A stretch of DNA of 58,664 bases from an uncultured Candidatus Poseidoniales archaeon (GCA_902573085.1 CACGHY010000004.1:1-58664), one strand, 5' to 3'. Counted from the stretch's first letter, positions 6,695 through 41,087 are shown. The notes: generated by a model from the letters alone, not told the origin. Numbers and translations: made by a program.

Positions 6695-8720
6695 CTATTC
6701 GATCCTCAGGGTACTTTCACATGCAGGGCAATCAATCCTCAGTGGCCGAATATCTGACTCGACAGGAACTTTCTTTCCACACGAAGGACATCTAACCATT
6801 CCGCCCTTATTCGAATTTCTCTGAACCCCAGAATCTTCAACAACCGGAGAAATTACTGAAGCAGGGAAAACAAGGAGTATGCTGGAACTAACTACCCCTA
6901 GAACTATTGGCATAGGTAAACCGAACCAGTAAATGGATAGCGATAGAACGCCCAAAACTCCAATCATAATCATACTTGGTGCTCTTGTCCTCCTCCTAGT
7001 CAGAGCCATACCAATTCCCAGTGCCAAGCAAAGAGCAAACACTGAAATCATTGCTGATATCAGTGGACTGAAGAGAAGGGCGTTTTCGGCCCCAAACTCC
7101 ATTCTGAAGTCTGTATCGGATTCGATATCGGAACTCTCCATAGTGATTATTTCCATCAATATCCACCTCCTATGGCTATAGTCTATCTCTTCATTGTCTA
7201 GGTATATCCCTCCAAAGCCAGAAAGCATTCCTGTTCTTATCTCAAATGAGAGTCCCACCTTATCCCAGAAATCATATCCCCCCGGCCTCACAAAATCCTC
7301 AATCAGTGCTTGTCTGGAGCCACTATCGGAGACATAGTATGTCGACGAAACTCTTAATGAAATAGAGTCTGAATTAAATGCTCTAGAAGCCCCTAGATCT
7401 ATGCTAATCTCAAGAGGGCCAAAGTCGACTGGATCCACTCCAAAAACAGCTTCTGGGTCAATCATCAAGCCACTGGAAAGGAATGATTTCAGATCGGACT
7501 TCGAACCTCTTAGATGGGTTTCTAGAGAAGACAGCTCTGAGTTATCCACTCTCCCGTTCTGCTTCTCCGAAGAGCTAACCTGATCTGAAAATGTGTTCAG
7601 ATTTCTCCACCAACTGTTTGATCCCAGGCTCTTATTCCCTATATTGTCTAGTCCCCACCTCATCCATTGAGACATAGCACCGTCGAACGATATGATCGTC
7701 TTTCTCTCGATCGAGTTGCCGTCATATTTGCAGTTGATTTCAACATCAAGTATCGAGCCTCCAGTCCGCGGAGGCTCTTCCTCTGGATACCAACTATTGT
7801 CTCCTGTGTCCTGGCCTAGCGTAATATCGTGAATTTTACTAGCTTCAATCACTAGTGACCCTTGAAGAGATATATGAAAATCCGTCCTAACCGAGCCCCC
7901 CCCCGCTCTCGCTGGGATCCCACACAAATGTGACATCCACCCAGTCTTCATTGGAGTTAACAATCGGACTTTCTGTGATCTCAACATTCTGAACCATTAG
8001 ACCACCAGATGAAGAGGTCCATATCCTGTCGCCGAAGCCAGAACTCAGTCTAACTGGAAAGAAAACAAGGCTTCCCTTAACACTAGCATCACGAATTTCG
8101 ACATTTATTAGCGGGAATGACATGGACATCGCAGCCGGATATTCTTCTGAGCCCCAGTAGAAGCTTATTCCAGACTCACTTCCCGGATTTGAAAAAATCA
8201 AACTTCTGACTGAAAATGTAATTTCGATTTTGTCATCTTTGGAGAATTGACCGTCTTGCACCTCTATCGGGATAGAAAGCTCACCCGAATCGCTGACATA
8301 AACTGCCGGGAGCTGTCCCGAGCTTTCGTAGGTATTTCCCCCGACCTTTACTACAACTGTTGCGTTCGCAGAAACCCCGGAAGAGTCCTTCACCTCATAT
8401 GGTATGGTGAAAGTCCATGTCCCCGAAGAATAACTGCCAGATTCCCCCCATATAATCGTCCAAGTACCGATTTCAACTTCCCCAAAAACTGATGAAGTCA
8501 CCTCCATGGACTTTTCCTCCTCTAATTCATTAGAGAATGGGGTCAGTTGCCCACTGTCTGCATCTCCAATCAAGAATAGATCAAATTCATCCGGAGATTC
8601 ACAGCAATCATTGTTCTCTTGGGCATTAGCCATCATGGGAGAAAAAACTACCATTATCATCATCAAGGAAAAAATGACTGCGAATCTTGAACTGGCGGCT
8701 TCCACGTTACTCTGATTCAC
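6695..8720 (-). CDS. Large exported membrane protein with C-terminal zinc ribbon, split by a frameshift at a G9 tract
   Basis: ORFs 7887-8861 and 6695-7987 join in frame (..PSESGGG/SVRTDF..) if one base of the run at 7896-7904 is removed; signal peptide, acidic beta-rich domain, three TM helices, CPSC...CPAC. Confidence 0.7.
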
Positions 8721-8787
8721 ACTGGCCCCTTCAATGCCACGTAAACTTTCAGTGAAAATATGCCGGTTTAAACGCAATTCAACTTTG

Positions 8788-10497
8788 CTAATTATGTAGC
8801 CATAGGAGCCTAGCAAACCCATCTTGAAAACCCTCGAATCTAGCAAAACCGACTCGCTCAAGTTGGTATATTTCTCCCTCTATTAGTTCAAAATTCTCTA
8901 CAACCCCCTTTACCTCATGAATCTCCTCACCTTTGGGTACTGCCAGTATCGCTTCTAGGGACAACCTCTCTGGAATCCAATGTACTATTTTTCGATCATC
9001 GCTCCTCTCAACCGACTCTATGGTCGCAGACGAACCTGAAATTATGATATCGGCGAAGTCTTTCAGTCTCAGCTTTCCTTCAACAAAATCACTATCCTGA
9101 ATTGATACAGTCGTCCCTACTTCCCACGCCCTGGAACCTTCAATTTCTCCATCCGGATGTCTTGCCATCATCACTCTTGAGGGGATATTTTCGGTACTAA
9201 GATCCAGATTTTTCGGATTTGACACGAACACCCTTCTTTCACAATTCCCGTCTATTATTCTAGAATTAAATGACTCCAATGTCTTCAGCGAGATTGAGAT
9301 ATCCTTCTGAGTAAGACCAACTTCTTCCCAAAGCTCTGCTAGAGAGCGAGGATCAAATCCGCGACGCCGCATTGCTCTGAGTGTAGGAAGCCTCGGATCG
9401 TCCCATCCCGAGAATTTACCCGAATCAATGGATGAAGACATCCCAGAGGTAGAGAAACCCCCAAACTCATGGATCTTCACCCTGCCCCAATACAATGGCT
9501 CAGGATATTCCCAACCGAAGTGTTCGTAAAGAATAGTCTGCTTCCTCGTGCTGTCCATCAAATCCTTTCCTCTGATGATGTGGCTTACTCCTTGCAGATG
9601 ATCCTCAATGGCGCTTTGGAAATCTAAGAGAGGCCAGACCTTGTACGTGTCGCCAACTATAGGATGCGGGGCATGCTGAATCCTTAGTGCGGGCCAGTCT
9701 CTCAAAGCGGGATTCGGCAGATCCATTTCGGTCTTTACCCTAACAACAGCTCTCCCCTCATCAATCTCTCCAGAGTTCATTTTGCTCCAATCGTCCATGT
9801 TCTGCTGGACCAACTTATCTCTACATGGACATTCAGTCTTTGAAACTCTGTACTCACGAAAATCCTCAGCAGTACATTCGCAAACATAGCCAAAACCCCC
9901 AATCAACATCTTCTCAGCGTGTTGGAGATATATTGGCATCCGTTCGCTAGCTCTAATCACAACATCTGCAGCCTTTCCTGTCATCCATTCGAACTCTTCT
10001 TCTATCCAAGCATAGGCATCAATAATTGGAGGTTTTACCTTAGTATCGGTATCGTCAAACCTGAGTACTATTTTGCCTTGGTATTTGTCTGCGTACAGGG
10101 AATTAATAGTCACTCCTCTTGAATGTCCTATGGTTAAAGGGCCATTGGGATTGGGAGCGAATCTCAGGATTACTTCTGATGTATTTCCTGGAAGATCCCT
10201 CAAACCCTCATTTTTCTTATGCCTCTCCCTATCTAGGGCCTCTGGAGCCAAACTCTCCAACTCTTTACGAACCCCTTCGATTCCATCTTCACGAGCTATA
10301 GAATTAGCCCTTGTGACCTCTTTCTCTACAAACGGTAGCAGGCTCTTGACACGGGTTCTCAGTTGTTCTCTCTCTGCAAGAACTCTACCTAGAACGCTTC
10401 CAGACTGCCCTTTGCCGCTGTACTCTATAGCGTTCTGTAATGCATACTTGCGAACTGCTTCCCGATCTTCCAGACCGAAAACTTCCTCGTCAGTCAT
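8788..10497 (-). CDS. gltX: Glutamate--tRNA ligase (archaeal type)
   Basis: RFAPNPNGPLTIGH (HIGH), LRFDDTD, HIIRGKD, FSTS (KMSKS-like), GWDDPRLPT, QLERVGF. Confidence 0.97.
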   Translation of the reverse strand: MTDEEVFGLEDREAVRKYALQNAIEYSGKGQSGSVLGRVLAEREQLRTRVKSLLPFVEKEVTRANSIAREDGIEGVRKELESLAPEALDRERHKKNEGLRDLPGNTSEVILRFAPNPNGPLTIGHSRGVTINSLYADKYQGKIVLRFDDTDTKVKPPIIDAYAWIEEEFEWMTGKAADVVIRASERMPIYLQHAEKMLIGGFGYVCECTAEDFREYRVSKTECPCRDKLVQQNMDDWSKMNSGEIDEGRAVVRVKTEMDLPNPALRDWPALRIQHAPHPIVGDTYKVWPLLDFQSAIEDHLQGVSHIIRGKDLMDSTRKQTILYEHFGWEYPEPLYWGRVKIHEFGGFSTSGMSSSIDSGKFSGWDDPRLPTLRAMRRRGFDPRSLAELWEEVGLTQKDISISLKTLESFNSRIIDGNCERRVFVSNPKNLDLSTENIPSRVMMARHPDGEIEGSRAWEVGTTVSIQDSDFVEGKLRLKDFADIIISGSSATIESVERSDDRKIVHWIPERLSLEAILAVPKGEEIHEVKGVVENFELIEGEIYQLERVGFARFEGFQDGFARLLWLHN

Positions 10498-34875: not shown

Positions 34876-35151
34876 ATGAAACCTAGCTACCCACAGACGT
34901 GGTGGCGCGACCCAATGGTTTGGCTAGGCCTTCTTCACGGCGCTGCAATATGGGCCTTTATGGCATCCTTACTCAGCATTTCATCCGCTTGGATTTCCCT
35001 TGCTTGTGGCTTCTTCATAGGGTTCTTCCTGTACTTGGTAGCCTTGGGATATCAGGACTATCGCTTTGCGAGGGCTATACTTGTAGGCCTCGCGATCAAT
35101 CTCTTCCTTTCTTCGCTCTCTGCTATCATCGCTCTTATGGACCAGTCCTAG
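34876..35151 (+). CDS. Small three-TM membrane protein
   Basis: Hydrophobic 91-aa ORF from MKPSYPQ; converges on the b6f-like operon. Confidence 0.55.
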   Translation: MKPSYPQTWWRDPMVWLGLLHGAAIWAFMASLLSISSAWISLACGFFIGFFLYLVALGYQDYRFARAILVGLAINLFLSSLSAIIALMDQS

Positions 35152-37961
35152 TTTTTGGATTCCTCTATCTGCCTGGCCAGGAAGCTCACAACATCAAGAA
35201 TCTCAAAGTCGTGTCTTGGGTCACCCTCGAATTTCAGACACTCGAAGTGTGCAACGCACTTTGGGCATGAGGTGAGCATTATGTCCGCTCCAGTTTCCCT
35301 GACTTCATCGAATCTCTGAACCCTCAGTGCCCTGCTATTCTCGTTGCAGGACATCATGCTTGAGACTCCACAGCATAAGGCATCTTCACCGGTATGCTCC
35401 ATCTCTACCAGATTTACCCCTTCTACAGAGCCTACCAGATCTCGTGGCTCATCGTAGATGTTCATCTGTCTACCCAACCTGCACGGGTCATGGTATGTCA
35501 CAGTGACTTCGTCGTTTGACTTCAGATTCATGTCGAATCCATTCTCAACTAGGAACTCTGTGGTGTGCATCACTTTCATGTCATCCAACTCATAGTCCAG
35601 AGCGAACGTCCTGAAACACTCAGCGCAAGAAGTGACCAATGTTTCAATCCCACTCTCTCCGAGCTTCTTTTGGTTGTATGCCTTTAATTTCTCGAATACC
35701 TCACTCATCCCTTGCCACTTCTGGTCGTGCCCACAGCACTTCAAGAAATCTCGACCCAGGTAGGTGACATCCTCTCCCATTTCCTCGAAAATCGTGAAAG
35801 CTGAAGTCGTAGCATCTCCAAGATCCATCGTTCCTTTGTTCACATGGCTGAAAACCATCTCCTGGTCGATATAATCAACACATCCAGGATAGTATCCTAT
35901 GCTTGAGTCCAACGGGTAATCTTCCACAGGGATGAAAGAATCGTCTGCATCTTCTTCCGCCTCAGCGGCTAATACTGCTTGCAACACCGTGTGCGGTATC
36001 TCCGTGGCAGGAGGCCCACCTACCACAAGGTTCCTTCTTATATCGATGTAAGAGTCGTAATCAACTAATTGTGGACATGCGTTTGTACATGCCGTGCAGG
36101 TCAGGCAGGAGTAAAGTGGAACCCCGTCATCTTCGTTGTTCCACGTATTGTAGATTATGTTGAGTTTATCCCCCGCATTGAACAATCTCACAGGGCAGGC
36201 GTCATCGCACAAATCGCATCCATAGCACTTGTTCATCTCCCACTCGTAGCCACGAGCCATGCTTCTGAGGAACATGAATACCATCGCGCCTACACCGAGG
36301 CACGGTATGAACATCGAGTAAATCAGTTTGGCATCAAGGCTCAGCGGGTTCTTTTGGAAAGTCGGATTTGTCAATGTTAACGAAGCAAGCTCCTCATCGC
36401 TGAGGCTGACTTCAGATCTAACTAGTGCCGTTCCATCTTCTTTGAGAAGTAGAGGCTGGTAGGAAATTGCTGAGAAGTCTGAGATCATTGTGACCGTGTC
36501 ATTGACTTGCTCTGAGATAGTGGTGAAGGAAATCGTGTAAGATCTCCCAGATTCAAGGTAGATTGTGTCAGACTCGCAAGTAGAACCGGAATTCGACCAA
36601 ATTTCTCGGCCCAAATCATCGGTAAGAGTTAGACTCTGAGTGTGGTAACCTGCATTTCGGACGGTTGTCCTGAAGTTGCAACCTATGTCTGTCTGAACTT
36701 CCGAAATTCCGAGGTCTTCAACCTCGAACTGGATGGATTCCGAAATCGAGATAGGGCTGCCGTCTTCCTCTCCTTGGTAGATGATTTCATTGGCCCCTAT
36801 ATTTCTGGATGTTTGCGTATCGGCGTGCCCATTAACCCCGCTGAAGTCTATTATCTGACTACGAGTAGGTTGGAAGATCCCCCAGTTGACAAAATGCTTC
36901 GCGGGTAATACACACCATTCAGAATGCGTCGTACCCTCTTCCATAGTTTCCCAGACAGACAAGGAATCTGTCTCCTCGTATGATAGGCATTCTTCCTCCC
37001 AGTCGTCCCACACAGGTCCCTTTTCAACGTGTATTAAAGAGTCTGCAGGCTGACCTCTTATCCTATCCAACTCGTCGAGCTTGGCATCGTATTGGTACTC
37101 CCAGAATCCCATTGTCCCCAGTCCCCTTTGATTCCAGAAACCATTCTCGTAGACCGGCCAAGTGACCGTGCAGAGTAGAACAGTTGCGATCAAAGATCCG
37201 ACGGCCACCTGTCTACCGAGAATTGGAGTCAACCGAGAACCCATCGGACCGATCAAGAATTTCCTAACCGAGAAATAAAGCACAACGAAGACGAAGACGC
37301 CAGTAAGGATCCATGGAACCGCATTGAAAACTTCGGCAGTCCATGGTGGCTGAGTACCGCAGTTGAATGTTCCATGAGGGCCAATCCAGCAGTAGTCCGT
37401 TCGATTCTGACCATACATTTCCAGGAAGATGTTTATCGAGAATACAGAAATAAACCACACATGCGCTAAGTATACGGCTCCCGCTGTAGCGAACCACGGA
37501 TCCTCGACACCCCTCTTCTCCCTTTTTCCGATAATGAATGGTGGAAGTGCGAGAATGGCCACAGGAACCCCAGTGATCATCGCACCCCACACCCCCGCAT
37601 TCCAAGAAACGATAGGCTGTCCGAAGAACTCACCTATCGGACCAGCAGGGATGTCGAACTGCGGCAAATACTCGCCCCACCTAAGGTATCCGTAAGAGAA
37701 CAGAACGTACCAATCAGGGAAGACGAAACCAGCCTGAGCGTAGGGATCTGCAGCGTTGTGTAAGGGCGGGGGGATGATCCAAGAATAGAATGCTATGACC
37801 ATTACTATCGAGGCGAAAATAATCGTATCTCTGAGAACTTCAGTAGGCCAGAAACCATGACCTGTGTGCACTCTTCTCCTTTCTTCCTCAGCACCAAGCA
37901 ATTGCTCTTTCTCGCTGACATAAGTGTCGGCAATCCTTCCAAATCTTTCAATCAGACCCAT
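35148..37961 (-). CDS. Cytochrome b6f subunit IV-like protein fused to an extracellular domain and a 2x[4Fe-4S]/2xCCG (HdrD/GlpC-like) module
   Basis: FWP..VLRD, PPLHNAADP, PDWY (PEWY motif); CYGCDLCDDACP, CLTCTACTNACP; YYPGC...CCG...TSCAEC and YHDPCRLGR...CCG...TSCPKC. Confidence 0.9.
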   Translation of the reverse strand: MGLIERFGRIADTYVSEKEQLLGAEEERRRVHTGHGFWPTEVLRDTIIFASIVMVIAFYSWIIPPPLHNAADPYAQAGFVFPDWYVLFSYGYLRWGEYLPQFDIPAGPIGEFFGQPIVSWNAGVWGAMITGVPVAILALPPFIIGKREKRGVEDPWFATAGAVYLAHVWFISVFSINIFLEMYGQNRTDYCWIGPHGTFNCGTQPPWTAEVFNAVPWILTGVFVFVVLYFSVRKFLIGPMGSRLTPILGRQVAVGSLIATVLLCTVTWPVYENGFWNQRGLGTMGFWEYQYDAKLDELDRIRGQPADSLIHVEKGPVWDDWEEECLSYEETDSLSVWETMEEGTTHSEWCVLPAKHFVNWGIFQPTRSQIIDFSGVNGHADTQTSRNIGANEIIYQGEEDGSPISISESIQFEVEDLGISEVQTDIGCNFRTTVRNAGYHTQSLTLTDDLGREIWSNSGSTCESDTIYLESGRSYTISFTTISEQVNDTVTMISDFSAISYQPLLLKEDGTALVRSEVSLSDEELASLTLTNPTFQKNPLSLDAKLIYSMFIPCLGVGAMVFMFLRSMARGYEWEMNKCYGCDLCDDACPVRLFNAGDKLNIIYNTWNNEDDGVPLYSCLTCTACTNACPQLVDYDSYIDIRRNLVVGGPPATEIPHTVLQAVLAAEAEEDADDSFIPVEDYPLDSSIGYYPGCVDYIDQEMVFSHVNKGTMDLGDATTSAFTIFEEMGEDVTYLGRDFLKCCGHDQKWQGMSEVFEKLKAYNQKKLGESGIETLVTSCAECFRTFALDYELDDMKVMHTTEFLVENGFDMNLKSNDEVTVTYHDPCRLGRQMNIYDEPRDLVGSVEGVNLVEMEHTGEDALCCGVSSMMSCNENSRALRVQRFDEVRETGADIMLTSCPKCVAHFECLKFEGDPRHDFEILDVVSFLARQIEESKN

Positions 37962-37970
37962 TCAATCACC

Positions 37971-38843
37971 TCAGTGCGGCTCCGCAATCCCTTGAACCCA
38001 GACGATGAATAGGTGGGTCAGAATAAGAACTGTAACAATTAGCGGTAGTACGAAAACGTGTAGGAAGTACATCCTGACAACTGTCTGGCCCGTCAGTGTC
38101 GTCCCACCAAACATAGCATTAGCCACCCATTCCCCAATCAGCGGAGTAGCCATTGCCATGTTGATTCCTATGGTGGCAGCTCCGAAGGCCAGGCTGTCCC
38201 AAGGCAACAAATAACCTGAGTAACCGAAGAATATCGAGAAAAACATTAGAGCTACTCCGATCAACCAATTGAGCTCTCTAGGGTTTCTATATGCCCCAGT
38301 GAAATAGACTCTGCACATGTGCAGAAATACCGCGGCCACGAAAAAGTGCGTGGTCCAATGGTGGACAGATCTGATGATGTATCCGAAGGGAAGCTCTAGC
38401 ATGATAAACTCCATTGATGCGTAGGCTGGGGTTGGATCTGAGTCCAAATCCCCTCCTGGTACGTAGTAAAATCCTAGAATGGTGCCGCTAATGACCAAGA
38501 TTATGAATGCCAAGAATGAAATTCCGCCCAAGCAATACAGGGGGTACCAATACCAGATTATTCTCAGTTTATACTTCTCAGCGTGGGTCAATGGCATCTG
38601 GCGATGCATGCTGTAATAGGAGTCTTTGGACATGCCCCAGTAGTCCTGAATCCTGAATCTAGTATCTAGCCAAGAGAAAGCCCACAGGAACAACTTCTCG
38701 GCAAGACCCATGCTACCAGCATTTGTTTCCACGGCCCTTAGAATGTCCTTTCTCGGCATGTCATCCCTCTCTCTTCTGAGCGTGAAGGCTACAATTACGA
38801 CCACGAAGGCTATGAAGATCCACAGGAACCAGAATTGAATCAT
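37971..38843 (-). CDS. petB: Cytochrome b6-like subunit (N-terminal half of cytochrome b)
   Basis: YCLGG, AYAS, RSVHHW...FLHMCRVYFTGAYRNPRELNW, GYLLPWD, FLHVFVLP...THLF, QGIAEPH. Confidence 0.93.
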   Translation of the reverse strand: MIQFWFLWIFIAFVVVIVAFTLRRERDDMPRKDILRAVETNAGSMGLAEKLFLWAFSWLDTRFRIQDYWGMSKDSYYSMHRQMPLTHAEKYKLRIIWYWYPLYCLGGISFLAFIILVISGTILGFYYVPGGDLDSDPTPAYASMEFIMLELPFGYIIRSVHHWTTHFFVAAVFLHMCRVYFTGAYRNPRELNWLIGVALMFFSIFFGYSGYLLPWDSLAFGAATIGINMAMATPLIGEWVANAMFGGTTLTGQTVVRMYFLHVFVLPLIVTVLILTHLFIVWVQGIAEPH

Positions 38844-38852
38844 TTTTATCAC

Positions 38853-39701
38853 CTAACCGCAGAACGTGTACCAATCCATAAAATCCGGAAGCGCCTCTAT
38901 CAATCCATCATTCACTTTGAATGGGATCAGCGGCATTCCATACGGAGCCGGACCACCGGTCTTCTTTACACCTATGAAGTCGAATTCTTGTCCATTTGAC
39001 CTGTTTCTTGCTGTATTTTTCTCTATTACGGTGTGGTCATACCTGCTGGAGTGACAGATGCAGAATGATTTGTTTCCGCTAGTGTCGGTCCCACCAGGTA
39101 ACCAGGTATCCGCTGTGTAGTCGTTACTAACGAGTTGCCACCCTGGAATGCAACACAAGTGAGGGCATCTGGCGAAAGCAATAATCAAGTTGTCATGGAT
39201 GTTCAATGATGCGTATTCTTCTTTTTCTTCGATTTCAAAGCCGGATCCTACGTATGCGCCACCAGCGGTGTATCCATCCATCAACTGGAACCTTGGGGTG
39301 CCTGCTTCTAATGGCTTGTTTTTGTTTTCCTCATGCGGGACGTATGTGGCTATGATGGGTAAGCCGGACCAAAGCCCCGCAGCTCCGACCATTCCGGTGG
39401 TCGTGTTCGCGGACTCGTCTACGAAAGATTGCAATGTCATGGGCTGTTTGTCCATGCTGCTGTACCACACATCAGAACCCTTGGGGACATAGAATTTTAC
39501 CGCAGAGTCAGACGCCCCTCCCTCTGCTTGACCCATTAAGAAGGAAGCGAATCCCACAGAGCCTAGTGCAGCTGTAGTAATCAGTCCTGCCGATGTATTG
39601 AAAGATAGCCTCATGAACTCCCTTCTGTCTATTCCGCCGCTCCTCTCGTGAATAGCATCACTCTGGGAGGAGATAGGACGTAGCTTAAATTTCCTTGCCA
39701 T
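38853..39701 (-). CDS. petC: Rieske [2Fe-2S] protein with Tat anchor
   Basis: DRREFM twin-arginine motif plus TM helix; CPHLCC and CICHSSRYD boxes; GGPAP. Confidence 0.9.
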   Translation of the reverse strand: MARKFKLRPISSQSDAIHERSGGIDRREFMRLSFNTSAGLITTAALGSVGFASFLMGQAEGGASDSAVKFYVPKGSDVWYSSMDKQPMTLQSFVDESANTTTGMVGAAGLWSGLPIIATYVPHEENKNKPLEAGTPRFQLMDGYTAGGAYVGSGFEIEEKEEYASLNIHDNLIIAFARCPHLCCIPGWQLVSNDYTADTWLPGGTDTSGNKSFCICHSSRYDHTVIEKNTARNRSNGQEFDFIGVKKTGGPAPYGMPLIPFKVNDGLIEALPDFMDWYTFCG

Positions 39702-39703
39702 TT

Positions 39704-40153
39704 TCAGACCTCGTACTTTTTCCAAGAATTAGTGTCATGATTAGTTATGTATTTGTTTCTCCTATGCTTGACAATCACCACATCAGGCAGGACGTATTTT
39801 AGGTACACAATCCCCAAGATTATCAGTGTAAGTAGCGTCATTGCCAAATTAAATGCAAGCAATTGTTGATCCCACTCCTGATACAATCCATATGCTAATG
39901 CGCCAGCCCAATAGAGGGTCCATAGAATGCCCCAAAGACCCACTATTATGATCAGCCAAGAATCCCCAGAAGGCGCCAGACTTGCTCTTACAATAGTCCC
40001 GGGCTTGACTTCATTGAATACTCCGTGATTCACGGCAGCTTCGAAGGACTCCTCTGTTAATGAAGCATCTTCGAGTGCCACTCTTGCGTCTTCGACACTG
40101 ACCTTTCCGGCCTTTACCTCTCGTAGCAGCCTCATAACTACATCGTCTTTCAT
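39704..40153 (-). CDS. Two-TM membrane protein within the Rieske/cytochrome b operon
   Basis: LLREVKAGKVSVEDA N-terminal helical hairpin, two TM helices; ATGA overlap with the upstream gene and 2-bp gap to the Rieske gene. Confidence 0.7.
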   Translation of the reverse strand: MKDDVVMRLLREVKAGKVSVEDARVALEDASLTEESFEAAVNHGVFNEVKPGTIVRASLAPSGDSWLIIIVGLWGILWTLYWAGALAYGLYQEWDQQLLAFNLAMTLLTLIILGIVYLKYVLPDVVIVKHRRNKYITNHDTNSWKKYEV

Positions 40154-40953
40154 AGTTGATCACCTCTTCTCAGATGTTTAATCCTAAGTTTTAGTAAGTT
40201 GCTTCTTCCTTTGTAGTTCCTGGAGAAACCGTATCTAAGGAATAGGCCGCAGAAGAAGATCACCAGTATAACTGCCCCAAAGCCAAGGATTCCCAACCAG
40301 TGGGCTTTGAGCTTAGCTCCCATTTTGTGGATGTCTTTCTTTCCTTCAATCGGTGCTGGTGGATTTATGTCACCGTTTCCTGAAAAAACGGTTTTTGTTC
40401 TTCCGCTATCTTCACCCTCGTCAATGCTGGTCGTTAGACGATTCCAACGGTCTAGACTAGATGGGGCTAAATCTCCGTTTACCGAGTTGCCTGCAACATT
40501 GAAAACCACTGATCCCGAGCCTTCGGACGGACTGGTCCAGACAAACATCCACGACCTATCGGGGGTTCTCGAGCCTGCATCGGTGTGTGTTAAGCTGGAT
40601 GCATCTCCCTCCCAATTCTCAACCATTGACTCGAATCCTTCCGAGGCGCTGAGCGACCCTTGGGTAACAGTCATTGCAAATCCGGCCGTGTGCGAATCGA
40701 GATTCGCGTCCGGACCGCCGATTAATTGCAACTTCATTTCGTAGGAAGTATCTGGGGCATAGTGGAACGGTACCCCATCGATGATGACGGTAACAGAATT
40801 GTCAGGCTCCTCGGCATGACAAGTGCATCCGGCGATTGAAACTTCTCCCTGTCCGTTTGCGTTTCCGCCAACTCCACTGTGCAGAGCTTCACTAGACCCC
40901 GCCACGAATAACGATAGGATTATCAGAGTGAATATCTTACGTTGTGTAGCCAT
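40150..40953 (-). CDS. Exported Reeler-like beta-sandwich protein with CxCH motif and C-terminal membrane anchor
   Basis: Signal peptide ending SSEA, GCTCH, VPFHYAPDTSYEM, GFAM, LTH, W.F.WTSP..GSGSV.F..AGNSVNGD, C-terminal TM helix. Confidence 0.8.
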   Translation of the reverse strand: MATQRKIFTLIILSLFVAGSSEALHSGVGGNANGQGEVSIAGCTCHAEEPDNSVTVIIDGVPFHYAPDTSYEMKLQLIGGPDANLDSHTAGFAMTVTQGSLSASEGFESMVENWEGDASSLTHTDAGSRTPDRSWMFVWTSPSEGSGSVVFNVAGNSVNGDLAPSSLDRWNRLTTSIDEGEDSGRTKTVFSGNGDINPPAPIEGKKDIHKMGAKLKAHWLGILGFGAVILVIFFCGLFLRYGFSRNYKGRSNLLKLRIKHLRRGDQL

Positions 40954-41087
40954 TTTTGCCCCCCCAGCCATTTGTTAATATTCACCAGAAAAAAGGGGGA
41001 TATGAACCTTACACTACAGCCCCTTCGGAGCTGCGTAGTAATATCGTTTTTCAAAAAATTCAAAGGCATCGCTCGACATTAGAGAAT

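Follow-up and report, generated by a model that had tools for sequence, protein, structure and literature searches.

Marine Group II archaea (the order Poseidoniales) are among the most abundant microbes in the ocean, and they have no cultured member. According to the available text of Tully 2019 (PMC6336850), the group has cytochrome b and a Rieske protein but no canonical bc1 complex. What takes electrons from the Rieske protein is the question raised by an operon in a 58,664-nucleotide stretch of DNA from an uncultured Candidatus Poseidoniales archaeon (GCA_902573085.1 CACGHY010000004.1:1-58664), the whole of which is called the window here. The Rieske box II encoded in the window, C-I-C-H-S-S-R-Y, carries the S-Y signature, which the accessible part of PMC4122944 associates with a high potential, above 260 mV. 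A high-potential Rieske protein without a canonical bc1 complex needs an electron acceptor. The first gene of the operon encodes an anchored, Reeler-like protein with a Cys-Thr-Cys-His motif, referred to below as the target. We propose, with a probability of roughly 0.6, that the target is a monohaem c-type cytochrome with a contracted motif that acts as the equivalent of cytochrome c1 or f. Its reading as a cytochrome f analogue is well supported by computation, and haem is its presumed cofactor. The features of the target are as follows.

40150..40971, minus strand: whole open reading frame (ORF) of the choice-of-anchor V / Reeler-like CxCH protein, 273 amino acids (aa) plus stop
40885..40971, minus strand: predicted signal peptide, residues 1-29 (hydrophobic helix 8-23 in the model; putative cut site)
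40381..40884, minus strand: extracytoplasmic beta-sandwich domain, residues 30-197
40816..40827, minus strand: C49-T-C51-H52, proposed contracted haem c attachment site with His52 as proximal ligand (from motif conservation)
40723-40773, minus strand: VPFHYAPDTSYEMKLQL, residues 67-83
40585..40587, minus strand: His129, candidate distal haem ligand (from near-invariance)
40315..40380, minus strand: flexible linker, residues 198-219 (predicted local distance difference test score, pLDDT, <60), with invariant His215 and Met217 just outside the membrane
40219..40314, minus strand: C-terminal transmembrane (TM) helix, residues 220-251 (helix in the model; columns nearly all invariant in 24 homologues)
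40153..40218, minus strand: basic cytoplasmic tail, residues 252-273 (GRSNLL.LR.KH..RGDQ; invariant columns)

The open frame at 40150-40971 on the minus strand was confirmed; it has 273 codons if the first ATG is taken as the start. Another ATG lies at 40953, the position at which the sequence-only reading had ended the gene; it gives a protein of 267 aa, the commonest length among target homologues, and is probably the true start. Cleavage of the signal peptide is likely after Ala29, between SEA and LH, as read from the sequence by eye. This cut would place Cys49 at residue 20 of the mature chain, and structural alignments with cytochrome f in its mature form begin at target residue 30. An AlphaFold2 model built on a 126-sequence alignment (mean pLDDT of 86.2) contains the hydrophobic helix at residues 8-23, ten beta strands within residues 60-197, a disordered linker, and one helix at residues 220-251. 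The layout first described from the DNA, with a signal peptide, C-T-C-H, a beta-rich body, and a single C-terminal TM helix, is thus seen in full in the sequence and the model. RNA-library contigs with 95-99% identity cover the gene, one of them spanning 39789-40941, which is not proof of transcription.

The target belongs to a widespread family. It matches the NCBIfam choice-of-anchor V domain NF041895 over residues 24-180 (84 bits, expectation value [E] 1.1e-23; cut-off, 42 bits; 85.3 bits in the genome search), a domain that carries no functional annotation. A Pfam scan of the target gave no family over threshold, only a sub-threshold pAdhesive_15, and phmmer against Protein Data Bank (PDB) sequences returned chance matches only. 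At E<=0.001 there were 361 target homologues, the named ones all from Marine Group II, and 711 relatives passed the same threshold when 1.84 billion cluster representatives were searched. A homologue is present in 151/151 genomes of the order, covering 22/22 genera. The motif was counted among the 120 of the 361 homologues that were listed; all 120 have CxCH, which is CTCH in 118 of them. With this number of homologues, their presence in every genome, and the motif in every listed sequence, the feature is not due to chance.

The residues G48, C49, C51, and H52 (G-C-T-C-H, residues 48-52) are invariant in 24/24 diverse homologues of the order, as are His129, His215, Met217, His224, and nearly all of the TM helix and tail. 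The strong conservation of the helix and tail suggests fixed contacts within a membrane complex. For a family-wide survey, 150 representatives of 50% clusters were taken, of which 15 are fragments that, by their match range, miss the site. The 135 that cover it include 123 with CxCH, 2 with CxxCH, 4 with Cx4CH, and 1 with Cx6CH; the rest are three with G-A-x-C-H, one with C-H alone, and one garbled. The C-H pair is therefore retained in 134/135 representatives, and the conservation of CxCH on which the original proposal depended extends across the family. An invariant Cys-His next to a first Cys that can move or be dispensed with is, at the level of sequence, the pattern of a haem c site and the strongest internal evidence for haem; because the first Cys varies or is lost beside the invariant C-H, the site is unlike a two-Cys metal site or a disulfide. 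Besides its own 1.8-kb contig, a single-protein scan with the G-A-T-C-H variant P0156 recovered one CoxI-fusion relative and nothing else, giving no gene context.

His52 is the likely proximal ligand and His129, 77 residues further on in the target, the likely distal one. The residue at position 129 is His in 110 of the 123 sequences of the raw alignment and still His in five more where the alignment slipped; about three members have Gln instead. A ligand put forward earlier, His2 of the mature chain, was rejected, since this position is His in only about 10 of the 24 close homologues.

The predicted structure points in the same direction. A Foldseek search with the target model ranked the reeler domain of F-spondin first (E 2e-6) and cytochrome f next (E 8e-5), so the model resembles both of the folds with which a comparison had been suggested. 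For two independent models, cytochrome f is the closest solved fold, tying with Reeler. The structural alignment with cytochrome f starts at cytochrome f residue 1, spans the N-terminal segment that bears the motif, and pairs 146 of its 249 residues with the target model. The likeness to the large domain of cytochrome f is thus reproducible among predicted models.

Shared features with cytochrome f (PetA) extend beyond the fold. The target and PetA each combine a signal peptide, predicted to be cleaved in the target, with a haem-type motif roughly 20 residues from the start of the mature chain, a large-domain beta-sandwich that aligns collinearly from the mature N-terminus, and one TM anchor at the C-terminus; each is also encoded together with a Rieske protein, a cytochrome b of the b6 type, and a protein resembling subunit IV. 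Unlike cytochrome f, the target has C-T-C-H in place of CxxCH (the form found in only 2/135 representatives), its family does not conserve the N-terminal spacing, and its host is an archaeon with System I* maturation.

The target opens a row of five closely spaced genes on the minus strand, with 4-nucleotide and near-zero spacings, and the ORF upstream of it lies on the opposite strand, which bears out the placement of the target at the head of an operon. The other four genes are given below.

39704..40153, minus strand: small protein with two TM helices, 149 aa; its start overlaps the target stop, and it matches DUF7318 weakly (26 bits against a cut-off of 27)
38853..39725, minus strand: Rieske iron-sulfur protein with a twin-arginine signal, box II CICHSSRY
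37971..38852, minus strand: b6-type cytochrome b (PF00033, E 4.8e-41)
35148..37961, minus strand: subunit IV-like part (PDWY) with a 4Fe-4S dicluster and two CCG domains (HdrD-like), 937 aa

This gene order is collinear in 6/6 loci from six further genera representing all three families of the order, and also in a single-contig relative (G027). Outside the order, 4/10 loci with TM-anchored homologues keep the target, the small protein, the Rieske protein, cytochrome b, and subunit IV. These four loci come from four other Thermoplasmatota families in which the target is only 28-31% identical. Linkage to the Rieske and cytochrome b genes, which the sequence-only reading had made a test of its proposal, thus reaches well beyond the order. 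Even at phylum distance, the 149-aa protein accompanies the target and the Rieske protein, in the same 6/6 and 4/10 loci, and is probably a further small subunit of the complex. A complex prediction combining cytochrome b, the subunit IV part, the target, and three haems scored 0.01 against a mark of 0.32 and is uninformative either way.

The 937-aa protein also has a large middle region between its subunit IV-like part, with the PDWY Qo motif, and its HdrD/TfrB-like Fe-S domains. The fusion would connect the complex, on its cytoplasmic side, with an Fe-S module. This fusion is kept in the 6/6 loci of the order; of the four linked loci outside the order, three have cytochrome b followed by the subunit IV part only, and one (L096) also has the HdrD part. 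An S-Y Rieske protein, read as high potential, together with a PDWY Qo motif (37700-37961) is an unusual combination, the latter being associated with low-potential systems in the portion of PMC4122944 at hand.

A c-type cytochrome requires a maturation system, and the presence of ccm genes was one of the checks that had been called for. The genome to which the window belongs (G000), which is 62.6% complete, encodes a CcmF-like protein of >750 aa, a CcmC-like protein, and a CcmE that ends in C-P-S-K-Y, the archaeal Cys-x-x-x-Tyr form, as well as a thioredoxin-CcdA fusion and a thioredoxin-like lipoprotein. According to the available text of PMC9084895, archaea are without CcmH, Methanosarcina needs no more than CcmABCEF for maturation, and it is to the Cys of C-x-x-x-Y that the haem is bound. 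Across the order, CcmE was found in 115/151 genomes. When five CcmE-negative genomes were searched again, CcmF and CcmC were found in 5/5 and, with CcmE of the window's genome as the query, CcmE in 3/5, so the true absence of CcmE from some genera was rejected in favor of a problem of search sensitivity. The ccm genes are thus present both in the window's genome and across the order. The target resembles c-type cytochromes generally in having an export signal, an outward-facing Cys...Cys-His site, and a maturation system in its genome, with a spacer of one residue and not two.

No other plausible substrate for this system was found. Among the 61 genomes of the order that are at least 90% complete, PF13442 was over cut-off in none and PF00034 in one. 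That single PF00034 match is in a genome of the window's own genus (G143), whose CcmE looks bacterial (E 1e-31, versus about 1e-8 elsewhere); the anomaly is probably a contaminating bacterial contig. In G027 (1,598,520 bases), a whole-genome scan of 1,427 non-overlapping ORFs yielded no canonical c-type cytochrome. CxxCH occurs in 11 of these ORFs, of which five have an N-terminal hydrophobic segment: two thioredoxin-type proteins, one HdrD-like Fe-S membrane protein, and two large surface proteins. The two surface proteins were rejected as general Ccm substrates because they are present in only 3/31 and 6/31 genomes, a distribution too patchy to explain why Ccm is universal. G027 also encodes five clear NF041895-type CxCH proteins. 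The distribution of the domain is nested inside that of Ccm-positive genomes. In 81 Thermoplasmatota genomes, the domain is found in 28 and PF01578 in 48, the latter in 28/28 domain-positive versus 20/53 domain-negative genomes, a cross-count in which related genomes are not independent and in which a respiratory lifestyle may underlie the domain and PF01578 alike.

The same domain also occurs at the terminal oxidase. In the window's own genome, haem-copper oxidase subunit I (CoxI) carries a fused paralogue with G-C-N-C-H, plus an extra TM helix, at its N-terminus.

G000:C10 (locus L106) 6759-9113, minus strand: CoxI with an N-terminal choice-of-anchor V domain
G000:C10 9115-9912, 5641-6834, and 5266-5628: rest of the coxII-I-III-IV cluster

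With the first 260 residues of the fusion as the query, 225 matches were obtained, and the 120 that were listed all have PF00115, most being 750-790 aa long, and all 120 have CxCH. The fusion is thus general in the order. In caa3-type oxidases, it is the C-terminus of subunit II that bears a fused domain, a class I cytochrome c. The CoxI paralogue is like them in joining an electron-entry domain to the oxidase; unlike them, it has a Reeler-like CxCH domain and an extra TM helix at the N-terminus of subunit I. Subunit II of the oxidase retains the CuA-type motif C-x-x-x-C-x-x-x-H-x-x-M, and the genome also encodes a blue copper protein.

Further CxCH domains are found in other settings. A third paralogue (K-Y-G-C-S/T-C-H) ends in a multi-TM region that belongs to no known family; about 15-16 kb separate it from ccmE in both genomes in which it was located (G000:C1 65161-66240, plus strand, locus L107; G027:C1 931193-932185, plus strand). 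At G027:C1 1530092-1533921 (minus strand), a CxCH domain forms the start of an 884-aa surface protein, and the next protein encoded is an anchored one of 392 aa that contains C-G-G-S-C-H (Cx3CH). The family hidden Markov model does not recognize this second protein. In another Thermoplasmatota genome (locus L102, G206:C234, 7883-12787), one of the six loci outside the order without linkage to Rieske and cytochrome b genes, three tandem CxCH paralogues precede an 813-aa twin-arginine protein that has an N-terminal Cys cluster and is molybdoenzyme-like. This locus hints that the CxCH domain also serves other periplasmic oxidoreductases.

In the most probable of the alternatives, the CxCH site binds copper or another metal and the target is a new cupredoxin-like electron carrier or a metallochaperone for the oxidase. 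We consider this unlikely. In the family survey the first Cys is lost in three representatives or moved by 2 to 6 residues in seven while C-H stays, and the family is nested inside Ccm-positive genomes. It is hard to see what a chaperone would do at the start of an operon for copper-free Rieske and cytochrome b proteins, and the genome already supplies a blue copper protein of the conventional type together with a CuA motif that is intact.

The relation to Reeler domains allows a second alternative, a module without a redox cofactor that serves in structure, assembly, or surface interaction, as the eukaryotic Reeler does, with two structural Cys. The family is homologous to a non-haem domain: 38 of 126 members match PF02014 (Reeler; best E 3.1e-7), and the family profile matches the F-spondin reeler at E 0.003. 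In addition, many members are long surface proteins with adhesin-type repeats (fn3, Big_1) and PGF-CTERM or other sorting signals, which an adhesin-like role fits as well as a redox role. The alignment to F-spondin opens only after the CxCH segment, however, which makes that segment an addition specific to the choice-of-anchor V family; eukaryotic Reeler domains (F-spondin reelin-N; PDB 3COO, 2ZOT, and 2ZOU) are without an N-terminal G-C-x-C-H segment and bind no haem. Single-Cys variants exclude a disulfide as a conserved feature. A module of this kind would also leave unexplained both its repeated recruitment to complexes III and IV and a Ccm system without any other substrate, and we regard it as very unlikely.

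Least probable is a noncovalent b-type haem protein like CbsA of the Sulfolobus SoxLN-CbsAB complex, with Ccm serving other proteins: His52 and His129 could provide bis-His ligation, and the gene order of an anchored outer protein, a hydrophobic protein, Rieske, and cytochrome b parallels cbsA-cbsB-soxL-soxN, but the Cys directly before His and the interchange with CxxCH point to thioether bonds, and no other plausible Ccm substrate was found.

Several observations in addition to the surface proteins weigh against a c-type cytochrome in the position of cytochrome f. Cytochrome f scores only 1-2 Z units above generic immunoglobulin-like sandwiches (8.2-8.6), and its small domain has no counterpart in the target, which is a single sandwich of about 160 residues. 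No apocytochrome f Pfam family was found for the target at E<=0.1 or among the families matched by the 126 members, and the family profile matched no cytochrome f chain among solved structures at E<=10. Of the proposal that the target is an analogue or distant homologue of cytochrome f, the analogue is favored by fold, motif, linkage, and ccm genes; homology finds no support in sequence comparison, as there is no profile match. The distance from cleavage site to motif, crudely estimated, ranges from 12 to 40 residues across distant members. An N-terminal amine ligand of the cytochrome f kind is consequently not supported family-wide. In 6/10 cases outside the order, the TM-anchored homologue does not adjoin Rieske and cytochrome b genes, and the blue copper protein itself could be the Rieske acceptor. 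A functional CxCH haem site is reportedly known only from an anammox tetrahaem cytochrome, in an organism said to use System II, and the Ccm system of Escherichia coli is not known to mature CxCH.

If the target is indeed a monohaem cytochrome, it would be exported, lose its signal peptide, and remain anchored on the outer side of the membrane through its C-terminal helix. One haem would be joined covalently to Cys49 and Cys51 by the archaeal Ccm system, which works without CcmH (CcmC, CcmE, and CcmF). The resulting haem domain, a sandwich of the Reeler and cytochrome f large-domain type, would occupy the position of cytochrome c1 or f in the Rieske/cytochrome b complex. Electrons would move from the high-potential Rieske cluster to this domain and from there to the paralogous CxCH domain at the CoxI N-terminus, either directly or via the blue copper protein. 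Here we infer both the direction of electron flow and the physical membership of the target in the complex.

Parts of this picture have precedents. CbsA (cytochrome b558/566) is an outward-facing, anchored archaeal b-type haem protein that is taken as a substitute for cytochrome c1 and is not known to have CxCH. Likened by description only, CbsA and the target are both anchored outer proteins of archaea, CbsA having a b-type haem and coming from a different lineage. The SoxNL-CbsAB complex is named in the accessible part of PMC4122944. The anammox CxCH site (Ferousi et al. 2019) indicates that a one-residue spacer can carry c-type haem; it is a single odd site in a multihaem protein and not the signature of a family.

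The closest precedent is in the available text of Kletzin et al. 2015 (PMC4429474), which predicts, without biochemical confirmation, Reelin-N-fold monohaem cytochromes c in Ignicoccus hospitalis (Igni_0759 and Igni_1052, cluster 38), with C28, C31, H32, and a conserved His111 at a His-to-His spacing of 79 residues. Compared by description, cluster 38 is like the target in its template (3COO), in a motif near the N-terminus with a His 79 residues on (77 here), and in a C-terminal TM helix in some members. It is unlike the target in having canonical CxxCH and, in the text available, no reported link to Rieske/cytochrome b or to an oxidase. The search in that study, as far as the same text goes, covered only CxxCH and would therefore miss CxCH proteins. 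NF041895 as a domain and predicted Reelin-fold CxxCH cytochromes in Ignicoccus are thus known already. Our literature search found no account of choice-of-anchor V or of the Reeler domain as a prokaryotic cytochrome, of the contracted motif as a family signature, of a link to Thermoplasmatota complexes III and IV, of the argument from a Ccm system without a classical substrate, or of a best fold match to cytochrome f. On a wider scale, cytochrome f of oxygenic photosynthesis might be a derived member of a widespread prokaryotic family of Reeler-like monohaem cytochromes with an N-terminal Cx(1-4)CH, and the archaeal subunit might descend from close to the ancestor whose recruitment gave a b6-type Rieske/cytochrome b complex this component, an idea that we hold only tentatively and consider rather doubtful.

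The target is a concrete candidate for the missing electron exit of complex III in Marine Group II, and the paralogue fused to CoxI may be where electrons enter the oxidase. Should the target bind haem, CxCH would be the signature of a family of c-type cytochromes that CxxCH-based surveys have overlooked, the streamlined archaeal Ccm system must accept a one-residue spacer, and cytochrome f would gain its first plausible relatives.

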